Part shown: positions 13,925 through 63,831 of the stretch, piece by piece | How the letters are laid out: each line of letters begins with the position of its first letter | Position numbering within the stretch: the first letter of the stretch is position 1 | Source: Octopus vulgaris | Lineage: Eukaryota | Direction of reading: 5' to 3' | Assembly (NCBI GenBank): GCA_951406725.2 | Contig: OX597837.1 | Location: 32,922,001-32,986,000, forward strand | DNA length: 64,000 bases | Program-made: the position numbers and the translations under genes | Notes under the pieces: model-generated | Databases searched by the model: none | What the model was told of the DNA's origin: nothing | Seen by the model: the letters and a program-made list of their open reading frames with translations, nothing else

Positions 13925-14335
13925 CGTGTGTGTGTGTGTGTGTGTGTGCGTATGTGTGTGTGTGTATGTGTGTGTGTGTGTGTGTTTAGGGTTAAGGGTT
14001 AGTCTGTCTGACTGTCTGTCTCTAAGTGAAGGTATTTGTGAGTTGTGTGGGAGTCGTGTGTGTGTATATATTAGTTTGTGGAAGGGATTATGCGTTTATG
14101 TGTGTGTATGTGGGGACATCATTCGGGGATTTGAAAATGGACCCCTCCCCACTTCACTAAAAAGAAAAAATTAGAGTAATTGATTGTGGTATTTTAGGAA
14201 TTTCTAATTAAATTTAATCCAAAACTAAAGAAATTATGGCATAGGTGGTGGTAGTAGGGGTGCAGACTCTTGGCATTGTGTTGGTAGGGAAGGGGTTAAT
14301 TGTGGTTTCGTGTTGAGAGAGTGATATAGTGGTAG

Positions 14336-14799
14336 TGGTGGTGATGGTGGTGGTGGTTGTGATATTGGGGGTAGGCAGTTGTGGTGGTAGTTGTTTTTGT
14401 GTTGTACGATAGGGGTGGTTGTGATTAGTTGTTGATGAGGGTGTTGTGGTGGTGGTGATGGTGGTGGTATTGTGATATTGGGGGTAGGCAGTTGTGGTGG
14501 TAGTTGTTTTTGTGTTGTAGGGGTGGTTGTGATTAGTTGTTGATGAGGGTGTTGTGGTGGTGGTGATGGTGGTGGTATTGTGATATTGGGGGTAGGCAGT
14601 TGTGGTGGTAGTTGTTTTTGCGTTGTAGGGGTGGTTGTGATTAGTTGTTGATGAGGGTGTTGTGGTGGTGGTGATGGTGGTGGTATTGTGATATTGGGGG
14701 TAGGCAGTTGTGGTGGTAGTTGTTTTTGCGTTGTAGGGGTGGTTGTGATTAGTTGTTGATGAGGGTGTTGTGGTGGTGGTGATGGTGGGGGTATTGTGA
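14336..14799. repeat. GT-rich minisatellite, 108-bp unit, about 4.3 copies
   Basis: gatattgggggtaggcag recurs at 14361, 14474, 14582 and 14690. Confidence 0.9.
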
Positions 14800-25577: not shown

Positions 25578-26289
25578 TCGTGTGTGTGTGTATGTGTGTT
25601 TATATTTTTTTGTGTCTATATGTATGTATATCTGTGTATTTGTGTATATGTGTGTATATAAGCATGAATGTGCATTCATATACATATACATATATATATA
25701 TATTTGTGTTTGTGTGTGTGTAAGTGTGTGTTTATATTTGTTTATGTGTCTATATGCATGTATATCTGTGTATTTGTGTATATGTATGTGTATAAGCATG
25801 AATGCGTGTTCATTTATACATACGTACATACATTCATACATATATATAAATGTGCGTATGTGTGTGCATGCATGTATATATGTATGCATACATGCATATA
25901 TGTATGTGTATATATATATATATATATATATCAAACTATGTATACCTGTATAGATAGGTACATGCATGTAGATATATATACGTGTGTATGTATGTATGTG
26001 TGTTTATGTTCATGCACACACGCGCGCACATACACACACGCACACATATTCCAAAGTCTTTAGCTTCAGTAGTTTCTCAGATGCCTGAGATACCAGGATT
26101 GATACTGAAAGAAGCCAACAACCCAGCAAGCAAGTATACACTATGAAAACAATGGCACCTAATTTTTCACTGGTTAGTAATGCTAAATAGATTTGGGGAA
26201 TGATATACTACCTATACCATTGAAACCTCTATGAATGCATGCAATATGCAAGAAATAGCAGTCTAATCTTCAAAGTACAACACCTTTAT

Positions 26290-27204
26290 GGTGACCAATT
26301 CATTACCTTAAGCAAGGACAAGACCACACATTAGATAACTTGTTCCTACATACAGTTGAAAAGGTGAGGTGATCATGGAAAGAATACCTTTAATCATACA
26401 TCTGTGTGATTAGAATTGACCTGAGGCTGCTATTCTAGTGCCTCCAATGGTCAAGATTGACCATGCCCTTACGGTGACCAATTCATTACCTTAAGCAAGG
26501 ACAAGACCACACATTAGATAACTTGTTCCTACATACAATTGAAAAGGTGAGGTGATCATGGAAAGAATACCTTTAATTATACATCTGTGTGATTAGAATT
26601 GACCTGAGGCTGCTATTCTAGTGCCTCCAATGGTCAAGATTGACCATGCCCTTACGGTGACCAATTCATTACCTTAAGCAAGGACAAGACCACATATTAG
26701 ATAACTTGTTCCTACATACAGTTGAAAAGGTGAGGTGATCATGAAAAGAATACCTTTAATCATACATCTGTGTGATTAGAATTGACCTGAGGCTGCTATT
26801 CTAGTGCCTCCAATTGTCAAGATTGACCATGCCCTTACGGTGACCAATTCATTACCTTAAGCAAGGACAAGACCACACATTAGATAACTTGTTCCTACAT
26901 ACAGTTGAAAAGGTGAGGTGATCATGGAAAGAATACCCTTAATCATACATCTGTTATATTAGAACTGACCTGAGGCTGCTATTCTAGTGCCTCCAATGGT
27001 CAAGATTGACCATGCCCTTACGGTGACCAATTCATTACCTTAAGCAAGGACAAGACCACACATTAGATAACTTGTTCCTACATACAGTTGAAAAGGTGAG
27101 GTGATCATGGAAAGAATACCTTTAATCATACATCTGTGTGATTAGAATTGACCTGAGGCTGCTATTCTAGTGCCTCCAATGGTCAAGATTGACCATGCCC
27201 TTAC
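26290..27204. repeat. Tandem array, 183-bp unit, 5 near-identical copies
   Basis: ggtgaccaattcattacc at 26290, 26473, 26656, 26839 and 27022. Confidence 0.95.
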
Positions 27205-30859: not shown

Positions 30860-31850
30860 GTTTGTTTTGGCAGGGATTTTACGGCTGGATGCCCTTCCTA
30901 ACACCAACCACTCTGCAGAGTGGGCTGGATGCTTTTTATGTGGCCCTAGCACAGGCGAGGTTAGTTTTTGGCATGATTTTTACAGCTGGATGCCCTTCCA
31001 AATGCCAACCACCTTACAGTGTGGACTCAGTGCTTTTTACATGGCACTAGCACAGGTGAGGTTAGTTTTGGCCTGATTTTTACAGCTGGGTGCCCTTCCA
31101 AATGCCAACCACCTTACAGTGTGGACTGGATGCTTGTTACATGGCACTAGCACAGGCGAAGTTAGTTTTGGCCTGATTTTTACAGCTGGGTGCCCTTCCA
31201 AATGCCAACCACCTTACAGTGTGGACTGGATGCTTGTTACATGGCACTAGCACAGGCGAAGTTAGTTTTGGCCTGATTTTTACAGCTGGATGCCCTTCCA
31301 AATGCCAACCACTTTATAGTGTGGACTGGATGCTTGTTACGTGGCACCAGCACAGGTGAGGTTAGTTTTGGCATGATTTTTACAGCTGGATGCCCTTCCA
31401 AATGCCAACCACCTTACAGTGTGGACTGGATGCTTTTTACATGGCACCAGCACAGGTGAGGTTAGTTTTGGCATGATTTTTACAGCTGGGTGCCCTTCCA
31501 AATGCCAACCACCTTACAGTGTGGACTCAGTGCTTTTTACATGGCACTAGCACAGGTGAGGTTAGTTTTGGCCTGATTTTTACAGCTGGGTGCCCTTCCA
31601 AATGCCAACCACCTTACAGTGTGGACTGGATGCTTTTTACATGGCACCAGCACAGGTGAGGTTAGTTTTGGCATGATTTTTACAGCTGGGTGCCCTTCCA
31701 AATGCCAACCACCTTACAGTGTGGACTGGATGCTTGTTACATGGCACCAGCACAGGTGAGGTTAGTTTTGGCATGATTTTTACAGCTGGGTGCCCTCCAA
31801 ATGCCAACCACCTTACAGTGTGGACTGGATGCTTGTTACGTGGCACCAGC
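30860..31850 (-). repeat. 100-bp tandem array (~10 units) inside a family D element (30757-31870)
   Basis: gttagttttgg at 31061, 31161, 31261 ... 31761, with close variants at 30860 and 30960; each unit carries CAGCTGG(A/G)TGCCCTTCC. Confidence 0.9.
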
Positions 31851-32419
31851 ATTGGCAGGGTCAACAAACCCTGTACAGGAAACAGAGAACTGTTCAAGAA
31901 TAATGCGGAACTTGTATTTTATGTGTCAAATATGGTATTTCGTTGGGAGTAAATTAAAGCTGTCAGAGATTCAGTAGAAACATGACTGGAATAAAGTTGG
32001 CATCCTCGTTGCAGAAGAGGTTAAAGAAGGAATTTAGGATTCCATATAAGGCTTAACTTATTAGATTTCCATACTGAGTTCTCTACAAGTTGTTGCTGGG
32101 GTGAAGAGAAGTGAAACCCTTCCCCCTTTCCACCACTGCCTCCTTTGTAAATTATAATTTGAAATAATGGGGTGAGGTGAGTGGGTGGGTGGGTGTCAAA
32201 TAACATGGATGGAATGGGGTGGGAGTGAAGCTGAAATGACAGTAAGTGGGGTGGGGGGGATGAAATGAGGGAGGAGGGCAGGGAGCCTGAAAGTCCCTAT
32301 TGTTGACAGGTGGATCTTGGGTCCTCTTCCATCCCATCCTTTCTGAACTGGGTAGATGGGAATCTTTAAATGTGTGTATGTATGTATGTGTGTGTGTGTG
32401 TACGTGTGTGTGTGTGTGT

Positions 32420-49977: not shown

Positions 49978-50468
49978 CTTTAAGCCCTAGCATGTAATTA
50001 TTGGGTTAAAAACCCGTTTCGATAGAAAGAGGCAAAGGCTGATCTTAGGAATGAACCCGTATCTTCTGTAAGCACGGCAGATGTTCTATCATCAGAGCAA
50101 AACAATCCTTTGAATTACTCCATTCGTTTTAGAAACTTTGTTCCTCCTGCTCCTGAGAATTACAACATCTTTCATGTTTATAGATGTAGGTTTAAATCCC
50201 ACAGGCAGTATTCAACTTTTTGTATCCAAAGGGGATTTTTTTGAACCCAATAATTACATTCTATTGTTTATAGCTTTATCTGCTTTGAGTTTCACAGATA
50301 CAAAAAAAAAAAAGACCATTTTAATGTAAGTCCCTATTTTACTCAGCTGGACCCTCACAGTCATTGATAGGGGCACAAGCATGAGCATCTCCCTGTGGAC
50401 AGGCACAAGCATGAGATTGAGAGTGGGCATAGCCATCGACATGGCTGCCTCAATTATCGCCTCCACTA

Positions 50469-51051
50469 AAGGCAACAAGCTGACAGAAACGTTAGCACAC
50501 TGGGCGAAATACTTAGTGGTATTTCGTCCGCCACTGCATTCTGAGTTCAAATTCCGCTGAGGTCGACTTTGCCTTTCATCCTTTCGGGGTCGATAAATTA
50601 AGCACCAGTTATGCACTGGGGTCGATATAATCGACTTAATCCGTTTGTCTGTCCTTGTTTGTCCCCTCTGTGTTTAGCCCCTTGTGGGTAGTAAAGAAAT
50701 AGGTATTTCATTTGTCTTTATGTTCTGAGTTCAAATTCCGCCAAGGTCGACTTTGCCTTTCATCCTTTCGGGGTCGATAAATTAAGTACCAGTTACGCAC
50801 TGGGGTCGATGTAATTGACTTAATACCTATGTCTATCCTTGTTTGTCCCCTCTGTGTTTAGCCCCTTGTGGGTAGTAAAGAAATAGGTATTTCATCTGTC
50901 TTTATGTTCTGAGTTCAAATTCCGCCATGGTTGACTTTGCCTTTCATCCTTTCGGGGTCAATAAATTAAGTACCGGTTGCATACTGGAGTCAATCTAATT
51001 AACTGGCCTCCCCATGAAAAATTTCGGACCTCATGCCTAGAGTAGAAAAGA
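50469..51051 (+). mobile_element. SINE family C trimer (one head, three bodies)
   Basis: Junction AAAGAAATA|GGTATTTC at ~50701 and ~50885; degenerate TSD aattatcgcctccact versus aattatcatttccact. Confidence 0.85.
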
Positions 51052-51362
51052 ATTATCATTTCCACTGGCTGCCGAACACTTGCAGCGAAGCTTCAAGGAG
51101 CTGAATCATGGTGCAGATCGACAGTGTAAAGGATGCGGGAGAAGTACAATCGCATCCACGTGGATGGAGATGAGCAGGAGAAAGAGAAGGTACATGAGCA
51201 CAAGCACAGCCATGCACTCATGGACACAGGTTGCTTGCTATGAACTTTAGGCAAGGCCGTGCTACACAGCAGAGACCTACGCAGCTGACCATCGTGTGCT
51301 CTTTCCTATCATGTTTAAAAGAAACATTATTGTGTATTTATAATTGGATATTATTAGGAGCT

Positions 51363-51945
51363 ATCATCATCATCATCATCATGATTGTTTAGCGTCCGCT
51401 TTCCATGCTAGCATGGGTTGGACGGTTCAACTGGGGTCTGGGAAGCCAGAAGGCTGCACCAGGCTCAGTTTGATCTGGTAATGTTTCTACGGCTGGATGC
51501 CCTTCCTAACGCCAACCACTCCGTGAGTGTAGTGGGTGCTTTTTACGTGCCAGACGAGTCTGGCAAACGGCCACGATCGGATGGTGCTTTTTATGTGCGA
51601 CCGGCACAGGGGCCAGGTGAGTCTGGCAACGGCCACGAATGGATGGTGCTTTTTACGTGCCACCGGCACGGGGGCCAGGCGAGGCTGGCAACGGCCATGA
51701 ACGGATGGTGCTTTTTATGTGCGACCGGCACGGGGGCCAGGCGAGGCTGGCAAACAGCCACGATCGGATGGTGCTTTTTATGTGCAACCGGCACGGGGGC
51801 CAGGCGAGGCTGGCAACGGCCACGAATGGATGGTGCTTTTTATGTGTCACCGACACGGGGGCCAGGCGAGGCTGGCAACGGCCACGAACGGATGGTGCTT
51901 TTTACGTGCCACCGGCACGAGGCCAGTTGGGGCGGTGCTGGCAAC
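51363..51945 (-). mobile_element. Family D retroposon with an internal 62-63 bp tandem module (x6)
   Basis: atggtgcttttta at 51581, 51643, 51705, 51768, 51830 and 51892. Confidence 0.85.
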
Positions 51946-61128: not shown

Positions 61129-61322
61129 GCATTACTTTGTATTAACCATGCGTTATCTTGTAGCTTTGAGATATCATTGATGTGATTGCTTATTTCTAGA
61201 ATGACATTGTAGGGGAGGCATGAGAGGCCTGATCTGGCCAGTTTAAAATATAGGATAGATAGGATATTTAGGCCAGACATGACCAGTTAAAATGCTAAAG
61301 GGTCGGTGATAATTACAGTTTT

Positions 61323-63548
61323 AAGGCAGCAAGCTGGCAGAAACGTTAGCACGCCGGGCGAAATGCTTAGCGGTATTTCGTCTGCGTTACGTTGAGTTCA
61401 AATTCCGCCGAGGTCCACTTTGCCTTTCATCCTTTCGGGGTCGATAAATTAAGTACCAGTTACGAACTGGGGTCGATATAATCGACTTAATACCTATGTC
61501 TGTCCTTGTTTGTCCCCTCTATGTTTAGCCCCTTCTGGGTAATAAAGAAATAGGTATTTCGTCTGCGTTACGTTGAGTTCAAATTCCGCCGAGGTCCACT
61601 TTGCCTTTCATCCTTTCGGGGTCGATAAATTAAGTACCAGTTACGAACTGGGGTCGATATAATCGACTTAATACCTATGTCTGTCCTTGTTTGTTCCCTC
61701 TATGTTTAGCCCCTTGTGGGTAATAAAGAAATAGGTATTTCGTCTGCGTTACGTTGAGTTCAAATTCCGCCGAGGTCCACTTTGCCTTTCATCCTTTCGG
61801 GGTCGATAAATTAAGTACCAGTTACGAACTGGGGTCGATATAATCGACTTAATACCTATGTCTGTCCTTGTTTGTACCCTCTGTGTTTAGCCCCTTGTGG
61901 GTAATAAAGAAATAGGTATTTCGTCTGCGTTACGTTGAGTTCAAATTCCGCCGAGGTCCACTTTGCTTTTCATCCTTTCGGGGTCGATAAATTAAGTACC
62001 AGTTACGAACTGGGGTCGATATAATCGACTTAATACCTATGTCTGTCCTTGTTTGTCCCCTCTATGTTTAGCCCCTTATGGGTAATAAAGAAATAGGTAT
62101 TTCGTCTGCGTTACGTTGAGTTCAAATTCCGCCGAGGTCCACTTTGCCTTTCATCCTTTCGGGGTCGATAAATTAAGTACCAGTTACGAACTGGGGGTCG
62201 ATATAATCGACTTAATACCTATGTCTGTCCTTGTTTGTTCCCTCTGTGTTTAGCCCTTTGTGGGTAATAAAGAAATAGGTATTTCGTCTGCGTTACGTTG
62301 AGTTCAAATTCCGCCGAGGTCCACTTTGCCTTTCATCATTTCGGGGTCAATAAATTAAGTACCAGTTACGCACTGGGATCGATGTAATCGACTTAATACC
62401 TATGTCTGTCCTTGTTTGTACCCTCTATGTTTAGCCCCTTGTGGGTAATAAAGAAATAGGTATTTCGTCTGCGTTACGTTGAGTTCAAATTCCGCCGAGG
62501 TCCACTTTGCCTTTCATCCTTTCGGGGTCAATAAATTAAGTACCAGTTACGCACTGGGATCGATGTAATCGACTTAATACCTATGTCTGTCCTTGTTTGT
62601 TCCCTCTATGTTTAGCCCCTTGTGGGTAATAAAGAAATAGGTATTTCGTCTGCGTTACGTTGAGTTCAAATTCCGCCGAGGTCCACTTTGCCTTTCATCC
62701 TTTCGGGGTCGATAAATTAAGTACCAGTTACGAACTGGGGGTCGATATAATCGACTTAATACCTATGTCTGTCCTTGTTTGTTCCCTCTGTGTTTAGCCC
62801 CTTGTGGGTAATAAAGAAATAGGTATTTCGTCTGCGTTACGTTGAGTTCAAATTCCGCCGAGGTCCACTTTGCCTTCCATCATTTCGGGGTTGATAAATT
62901 AAGTACCAGTTACGAACTGGGGGTCGATATAATCGACTTAATACCTATGTCTGTCCTTGTTTGTCCCCTTTATGTTTAGCCCCTTGTGGGTAATAAAGAA
63001 ATAGGTATTTCGTCTGCGTTACGTTGAGTTCAAATTCCGCCGAGGTCCACTTTGCCTTTCATCCTTTCGGGGTCGATAAATTAAGTACCAGTTACGCACT
63101 GGGATCGATGTAATCGACTTAATACCTATGTCTGTCCTTGTTTGTTCCCTCTGTGTTTAGCCCCTTGTGGGTAATAAAGAAATAGGTATTTCGTCTGCGT
63201 TACATTGAGTTCAAATTCCGCCGAGGTCCACTTTGCCTTCCATCATTTCGGGGTTGATAAATTAAGTACCAGTTACGAACTGGGGGTCGATATAATCGAC
63301 TTAATACCTATGTCTGTCCTTGTTTGTTCCCTCTGTGTTTAGCCCCTTGTGGGTAATAAAGAAATAGGTATTTCGTCTGCGTTACGTTGAGTTCAAATTC
63401 CGCCGAGGTCCACTTTGCCTTCCATCATTTCGGGGTTGATAAATTAAGTACCAGTTACGAACTGGGGGTCGATATAATCGACTTAATACCTATGTCTGTC
63501 CTTGTTTGTTCCCTCTGTGTTTAGCCCCTTGTGGGTAATAAAGAAATA
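61323..63548 (+). mobile_element. SINE family C concatemer: one tRNA 5' head plus 12 tandem 181-182 bp bodies
   Basis: Unit start GGTATTTCG at 61372, 61553, 61734, 61915, 62096, 62278, 62459, 62640, 62822, 63004, 63185 and 63367; 14-bp TSD gataattacagttt at 61308-61321 and 63549-63562. Confidence 0.95.
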
Positions 63549-63583
63549 GATAATTACAGTTTCTTTTTGTTTTTGTATTTCAG

Positions 63584-63831
63584 TGACAAAGAGTCGTCAG
63601 TGAGCAGACCAAGTATGTCAGCTGCTTTCAGCATGTCCAGTTCCGGCAGCATCGGCAGTGTGGTCAGCAGTAACGGGGGAGGGACAACAAGCAGCGTGGA
63701 GACTACTTCGGGAAGCGCCGTGATGGTGTGGATGATGGAACTACGGTTCTCTACGGAGATGGAATGTATGACTGTTCTACAGAGCAAGTCTATACGAAGA
63801 GGGAACGACCTGTCAGGACGGGCAGTGAAAA
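63584..63831 (+). CDS. Internal (or first coding) exon of an unidentified protein-coding gene; Ser/Gly-rich
   Basis: Pyrimidine tract and acceptor ttctttttgtttttgtatttcag (ends 63583), donor A|gtaagt (63832). The 248-nt non-repetitive, GC-richer block has only one stop-free + frame: DKESSVSRPSMSAAFSMSSSGSIGSVVSSNGGGTTSSVETTSGSAVMVWMMELRFSTEMECMTVLQSKSIRRGNDLSGRAVK. No family recognised. Confidence 0.7.

Follow-up and report, generated by a model that had tools for sequence, protein, structure and literature searches.

A tandem array of an octopus SINE with a fixed junction: probable insertion of the SINE at position 48 of its own kin and local expansion of the chain

R2 is an autonomous element that encodes a restriction-like endonuclease. 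In the sections of the R2 literature that deal with integration, homology at the 5' end is described as an aid to this step, and template jumping is known (PMC12203849). A SINE and a LINE can also share a target. This is the case for the crocodilian SINEU-3 and the Tx1-type LINE Tx1-Mar, which, in the relevant passages of Kojima (2015; PMC4494074), share a target in a multicopy mobile element. Tandem units of another kind are formed by animal non-LTR retrozymes, for which the passages concerned name the hammerhead ribozyme and circular RNA as defining features, along with a connection to Penelope-like elements (PMC7761336; bioRxiv 10.64898/2026.07.22.740005). For the SINE-derived satellites of squamates (sSats), the words "TSD" and "rolling" are absent from the text of the source paper (PMC10702118). 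A search of the open-access literature returned no paper on a SINE that targets its own head, nor on octopus chains of the kind described below, and SINE self-targeting is not mentioned in the matching passages of a 2026 octopus repeat annotation (PMC13282606).

We analysed a stretch of 64,000 nucleotides of the Octopus vulgaris genome (the window), which carries a tandem SINE array at 61308-63562. Positions in the element are numbered 1-231, and the bodies begin at position 48, between A-box-like and B-box-like motifs. The features of the array are as follows.

61308..61321, + strand: left TSD copy, 14 bp, GATAATTACAGTTT; its start matches the family target motif (4.5 bits); empty site in run X7
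61325..61371, + strand: the one SINE head, tRNA-like, covering element positions 1-47 and differing from the lineage majority by 2 substitutions; A-box-like motif at 61335
61359..61381, + strand: head hairpin, predicted at -8.4 kcal/mol, that straddles the site of insertion (61372, element position 48)
61372..63548, + strand: 12 tandem bodies of 181-182 bp, element positions 48-231; the three deleted bases of a rare lineage and one array-wide substitution; mosaic
61508..61552, + strand: LINE-like tail of unit 1, recurring in every unit; alignment on the family majority
63549..63562, + strand: right TSD copy, 14 bp, GATAATTACAGTTT, the same 14-mer; empty site in run X7
63564..63575, + strand: first T-runs 3' of the array, doubling as the putative pyrimidine tract of the probable exon that follows

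The sequence GATAATTACAGTTT occurs twice within the window, at 61308-61321 and 63549-63562. A contig from run X7 (organism C) contains the left flank, one TSD copy and the right flank, so the TSD is genuine and the site was formerly empty. A contig from run X3 (organism A) spans the left flank into the head. The bodies start at 61372, 61553, 61734, 61915, 62096, 62278, 62459, 62640, 62822, 63004, 63185 and 63367, and at all 11 junctions inside the 12-mer GAAATA is followed directly by GGTATTTC. One head, 12 bodies of 181-182 bp, a single enclosing TSD of 14 bp and a fixed junction had been claimed in a preliminary description of this DNA, and the coordinates, the empty site in run X7 and the 11/11 junctions agree with it. 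The A-box-like motif was found in the head only (61335) and a B-box-like motif in each body, first at 61394; these calls rest on consensus sequences for both boxes. ARAGORN found no tRNA gene. Folding predicted only -1.4 kcal/mol for the junction hairpin versus -8.4 for the head hairpin. The T-runs at 63564..63575 are a possible Pol III terminator, a putative function. Downstream, 63585-63831 probably represents a coding exon, with an 82-aa open frame preceded by AG and followed by GTAAGT, and is conserved in four runs; it lies on the same strand as the array, which stops 36 bp upstream, beside the pyrimidine tract of the exon.

The window contains a second chain, which can be summarized in one line.

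50471..51050, + strand: head followed by two bodies of family 1 and one of the sister family; site 48 is the junction position in both cases

The preliminary description had reported the same junction at 50.5-51.0 kb. Two identical junctions indeed lie there, but the chain is not a like-for-like array, since it closes with a sister-family unit whose 3' end is different, and the TSD copies (50452-50467 and 51051-51066) agree at 13/16 positions. Four other short tandem arrays are present at 26286-27204 (183 bp x5), 30860-31851 (100 bp x10), 51549-51926 (62 bp x6) and 14335-14799 (108 bp x4), two of which resemble pieces of other dispersed repeats; local tandem expansion is therefore common in the window.

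Exact-match searches over the genome of 2.8 Gb revealed that the site-48 junction is neither peculiar to this locus nor the sole junction type. It had 52,829 matches compared with 2 for a reversed control and so cannot be due to chance. The family 3' end had 134,670 matches, and 37 of the first 100 3' ends listed adjoin a listed junction (a hand comparison that includes junctions from later expansion). A second junction type, at position 15 and with neither complementarity nor palindrome, had 4,111. We also parsed 365 ends in 148 sequences (1.35 Mb). Re-entry was at position 48 in 169, at 15 in 40 and elsewhere in 19, and 137 showed none; these sequences were picked largely for their junction motifs or end motifs and come for the most part from the initial 3.1 Mb of contig C1, and the proportions are not genome-wide. 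One 4-unit chain was tallied three times in this sample (L101, L102 and L159); it occurs with its flanks three times on contig C1 within 150 kb, as a segmental or assembly duplication.

A sister-family SINE, which has positions 1-166 in common with family 1 and a different tail, terminates 62/140 chains in this motif-chosen sample, the 50.5-kb chain among them. The apparent rule that the sister family is never non-final was dropped as a mere consequence of the chain definition used. The focal family has the features of a tRNA-derived SINE: a tRNA-like head with A and B boxes, high dispersed copy number, short variable TSDs (10-29 bp in 34/74 full-length single copies of the motif-chosen sample) and a tail shared with a LINE. 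We take it to resemble the octopus tRNA-derived SINEs of Ohshima and Okada (1994), to which it is likened by description (tRNA-like head, about 230 bp, very abundant). Those SINEs are cited in passages of PMC4758252 and PMC4824008.

The rare lineage of the array, recognized by its three deleted bases, allowed the origin of the junctions to be followed. It had 33 matches, 11 in the array and 22 elsewhere. Among 20 dispersed copies examined, 9 were joined at site 48 to 9 different partners, which were 78-94% alike and of three kinds; GGT follows in 8/10 stand-alone copies with an intact end. The halves of same-family dimers (n=35) were 0.869 identical, compared with 0.874 for random copies. The junctions therefore arose independently, as 9 copies of one lineage have 9 partners and the two halves of a dimer resemble each other no more than copies drawn at random. 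This corroborates the earlier claim that the junction forms repeatedly. A tabulation of loci by junction position and subfamily had been proposed as a check on independent origin, and the partners of the rare lineage indicate just that.

The behaviour of site 48 as an insertion target was seen most directly at four loci, in which an old head, a duplication, a full-length new copy, the duplication again and the old body follow one another, with the duplication beginning at position 48. The duplication is 16 bp long at L036, where the old host (73-75% identity) has its own outer TSD; 18 bp at L134, where one private deletion is common to both copies; 19 bp at L092; and imperfect at L066. In unique DNA, the TSD begins exactly at the element end in 26/40 ends with a detectable TSD. 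An RNA-templated GGTA tail was considered and rejected, since the motif is mostly in both TSD copies (26/40 at offset 0). Target starts resemble DRTAW/GGTAT, of which site 48 is the best match within the element, and with a 7-base profile built from 120 flanks outside SINE heads, site 48 came top of 450 element positions; the motif score of the focal TSD start was 4.5 bits versus 6.9. The 9/20 rare-lineage copies joined at site 48 lie above the >20% of insertions in one multicopy target that is used for Tx1-clade-type specificity (PMC4494074).

Variants of the tail follow the targets. TAGT/TAAT tails were found at 119/146 site-48 junctions and 36/43 GG-type unique targets, and CAAT tails at 23/38 site-15 junctions and 6/8 AGA-type targets. 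The last nine bases are identical in elements going to either site. We therefore favor a preference of the helper enzyme over end pairing, as tail variants follow targets although the last nine bases are the same. Guidance by end pairing, as the preliminary description had suggested, is not needed for a fixed junction, because the second site lacks complementarity. Unique targets show an enrichment that matches the tail complement at +3 to +5 (T, A and T) and at +7 (T), and none at +6 and +8; by this pattern, pairing of the RNA end with the target is no more than a possibility. A rough sum, with a motif weight of ~120-fold and a density of one copy in about 5 kb (22 chains counted over 110 kb), suggests that the 7-base motif alone would send ~1% of insertions to site 48, compared with roughly 37-39% of ends observed. 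Additional specificity must therefore come from elsewhere, be it a longer recognition site, the state of the chromatin, homology of the heads or pairing by the RNA.

A motif search aimed at site 48 revealed LINE sequence ending there in 12/30 loci, so that LINE and SINE have a target base in common; given its aim, the count describes this site and not the LINE's share of insertions elsewhere. The SINE tail, taken as family majority, was identical to the 3' ends of three site-48 LINE copies at 36-41 of 46-48 aligned columns. One site-48 LINE contains an ORF with a zf-RVT domain; over 255 aa, this ORF has 67% identity with an intact ORF2 of endonuclease-RT-zf-RVT make-up. The domains of the candidate helper are an AP endonuclease, an RT and zf-RVT, the nearest solved structures being L1 endonucleases, and we would class it as L1/Tx1-type, a label that covers both L1 and Tx1. 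No intact LINE copy was found at site 48, and intact relatives with the same tail occupy other targets. A helper was sought among 30 + 20 zf-RVT loci, in which the tail was common to many and none lay at site 48; two tail motifs tried in this search yielded nothing useful.

On the 5' side, 12 stretches taken as LINE 5' ends comprised 7 LINE, 2 SINE and 3 that were not parsed. Seven of 13 LINE loci lacked a SINE head, and the site-48 duplication was present in one only, short and imperfect. Three site-48 LINE copies (L278, L279 and L275) are joined on their 5' side to a SINE piece ending at 106, 112 or 184, in two of them of another family than the 3' partner; these joints suggest a template switch or a rebuilt 5' side. 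Many related LINE families share the AAGAAAT end yet sit at other repeated targets. Because this tail is clade-wide, the junction palindrome is probably a by-product of its meeting the 3' arm of the head hairpin. We also observed several L1/Tx1-type LINE families with a common tail, each at its own repeated target (L223-L242 and L163-L192), and some such families in tandem arrays ~5.4 kb apart (G000:C2:73046133-73068136).

The units of the 12-mer were compared with one another and with dispersed copies. All 12 have eight non-majority states in common, four of which occur at 1-3% in other copies, and the diagnostic 37-mer of the array occurs once outside it, in a single copy with a different head. 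The 12 units are therefore not eleven separate insertions. Nor do they represent one circle copied round, as nine two-state shared sites form a mosaic, in which 12/36 informative site pairs are incompatible, against 4 singletons. Private changes amounted to 5/1,896 (0.26%) in the array and 61/3,082 (2.0%) in dispersed lineage members (p 2e-8), and the unrepeated head has 2 changes in 47. With so few private changes in the units compared with the head, copying or conversion continued well past the insertion event, or else this event is far more recent than the lineage. Dispersed members show both array haplotypes at positions 144/157/193, and the 2.2 kb of the array hold just one TTTT, with T-runs directly behind.

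The same pattern was seen in other chains made up entirely of site-48 junctions and at least four units long. Inner units were 0.97-1.00 alike in 7/7, with a 5' part like that of the last unit in 6/7 and a 3' part like that of the first unit in 6/7, the pattern that a two-unit seed would leave on expansion. The array has 10 middle units with a mean pairwise difference of 2.7%, and an sSat is defined by four or more tandem middle monomers derived from part of a SINE. The focal array is probably an ordinary local expansion rather than a new RNA replicon. Other tandem forms were also observed: a head satellite of eight tandem heads (positions 1-46) before a dimer (L196, G000:C2:35488895-35491916); a full copy trailed by positions 154-231 in four additional tandem copies, then a LINE ending at site 48 (L280); a sister-family body alternating with a family-1 unit that enters at position 15, behind a LINE end (L258:1513-2419); and, as a separate habit, sister-family SINEs that end in ATT repeats and stack head to tail at ATT-rich sites (L014, L026, L041 and L060).

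We consider it likely that this tRNA-type SINE inserts at position 48 of its own and sister SINEs, probably by target-primed reverse transcription (TPRT) with an L1/Tx1-type LINE as helper, that such an insertion seeded the chain, and that unequal exchange and gene conversion expanded it to 12 units. Targets that begin with a DRTAW/GGTAT-like motif would be chosen, site 48 being the best match in the element. A full-length copy would then land in an old head with a duplication starting at site 48, the arrangement seen at four loci. The new head would recombine with or collapse onto the matching target head, leaving a seamless head, body and body; this might occur if the cDNA anneals to the target head or if two adjacent heads collapse. 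The enzymes would come from the LINE that ends at the same base. Finally, DNA-level exchange, of which the unit pattern would be the visible trace, would extend the two-unit seed into a long chain. Seeding of the focal locus by self-targeted insertion is likely from what the family does elsewhere; a second founder is not visible there because all 12 units are of one rare lineage.

Several observations strain this proposal. There were 97 seamless chains and just 4 nested cases, and 15/22 5'-truncated chains lacked a head; both count against it, as do the headless LINE loci and the failure to find an intact LINE copy at site 48. Because seamless chains dominate and heads diverge like the incoming family, the model requires replacement of the old head by the new, and head overwriting would carry most of it. 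Last units appeared older than first units with CpG sites included (0.103 versus 0.073, n=39, p 0.012), and this difference was not significant without them (p 0.38). In most chains the head is like that of the incoming family, and no excess of private changes common to the first and last units was seen at 49-66; template jumping predicts both likewise. At positions 91-120 there was a slight excess of such changes, 12 versus 5.3 (p 0.022). Diagnostic base 19 of the head failed to separate the models (13/30 versus 10/37; old subtype 3/7). We put forward only tentatively, with less than even confidence, the fuller idea of a homing SINE. The helper endonuclease would cut between the A and B boxes, in the promoter of the SINE family itself, and the cDNA would recombine with the target head in a seamless joint, so that each insertion restores promoter and landing site. 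Tens of thousands of such joints would seed satellites, and head homology, perhaps with pairing of the RNA end to the displaced target strand, would add specificity.

Among other explanations, Pol III might have read through a chain made elsewhere, the whole multimer being retrotransposed in one step and then altered locally. A one-step insertion of this kind is conceivable because no foreign founder is visible at the focal locus. The unit has no strong T-run, the lone TTTT and the T-runs behind the array would suit such a transcript, all units are of one lineage whose dispersed members hold both haplotypes, and the TSD starts like a normal target in a site that is empty in organism C; a headless 4-mer (L050) also lies, by eye, between duplication copies of ~40 bp. 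No source chain was found, however, the diagnostic 37-mer occurring elsewhere once, in a single copy with a different head, and a credible TSD was present in 0/15 headless truncated chains, a weak test given 2/19 for truncated single copies. It also leaves the first junctions unexplained, and we judge it unlikely. Template jumping, in which the RT halts at the head hairpin of one RNA and, guided by GAAAUA/UAUUUC pairing, switches to the following RNA at its 3' end, appears less likely again. It would account for the divergence of chain heads (0.077-0.086, versus 0.082 for family-1 and 0.152 for sister-family single copies), which follow the family of the first unit, and for the enrichment at +3 to +5 and +7. 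End-to-end jumping is known for the R2 enzyme, in the passages on that activity (PMC12203849). TSD-flanked nested copies, and LINE ends that share this base, are nevertheless signatures of a DNA target. Some partners are old copies, with 78-85% identity either to the majority or to other partners, elements with identical last nine bases also go to the noncomplementary site 15 and +6 and +8 are not enriched, the junction hairpin is weak, and eleven jumps among cellular RNAs would not yield 12 units of one rare lineage.

The mechanism favored in the preliminary description was a retrozyme-like rolling circle, with cleavage in the loop, a circular 181-nt body and rolling-circle reverse transcription. 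Lineage-specific changes common to 12 units within one TSD fit it, as does a unit length within the 150-300 nt given for animal retrozymes in the relevant passages of PMC7761336. It predicts identical units with private later changes, whereas the array has its 9 mosaic shared sites against 4 singletons. An Rfam scan of the head and three units at E up to 10 gave four weak matches, none of them a ribozyme, though minimal hammerheads could be missed in such a scan. Nor can a circle yield the sister-family chain ends (62/140), the nested TSDs, LINE ends at the site or a single head. Insertion into a DNA target is favored over a circle by these nested TSDs, LINE ends and chain ends and by unrelated targets that carry the motif, and we regard the rolling circle as very improbable and the earlier proposal as unsupported. 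Least probable of all, and hardly credible, is one ancestral dimeric master behind every junction, with DNA-level expansion later, which had been offered as the alternative. Its DNA-level expansion is upheld by the mosaic and the few private changes; its single dimer fails, since 9 different partners of one rare lineage call for independent junctions, the halves of a dimer differ as much as random copies do and there are two junction positions. Overall, the preliminary interpretation is partly supported, and its mechanism was wrong or at least unneeded.

Self-targeted insertion followed by exchange offers a concrete and testable explanation of how a dispersed retroposon may turn into satellite DNA whose unit boundary is fixed. 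A large share of the insertions of a major SINE go into its own kin, by which host DNA is spared, and such insertions distort copy counts, age estimates and, through chimeric units, subfamily calls. Seamless, homology-aided integration of a SINE at a defined site, if true, would also bear on how non-LTR elements join their 5' ends.

Unlike animal non-LTR retrozymes, the octopus array has no Rfam ribozyme match and a tail that matches an L1/Tx1-type LINE, although it shares tandem units of the 150-300 nt described in the parts of PMC7761336 on unit size. With R2 in 28S rDNA it has in common site-specific insertion in a multicopy, gene-like target, going by the target description in PMC12203849. 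It differs in that the octopus SINE is nonautonomous, would depend on an AP-endonuclease helper and targets its own family. Squamate sSat1-3, as presented in the corresponding sections of Vassetzky et al. (2023; PMC10702118), likewise consist of a tandem SINE sub-part with units of 70-290 nt in few to many copies, partly homogenized. Seeding there, in the same sections, is by unequal recombination or same-locus insertion, whereas the octopus unit boundary is set by the insertion site. SINEU-3 and Tx1-Mar, in the passages of PMC4494074 on their target, provide the parallel of a common SINE/LINE target with tandem copies formed by sequential insertion. The target there is an unrelated Mariner, and a TSD is visible between tandem copies, according to the same passages; for the octopus SINE, its own head is the target, the joints are mostly seamless and the chains then expand clonally. 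By analogy, the octopus SINE would appear to work like SINEU-3 with Tx1-Mar and to end like a squamate SINE-derived satellite.
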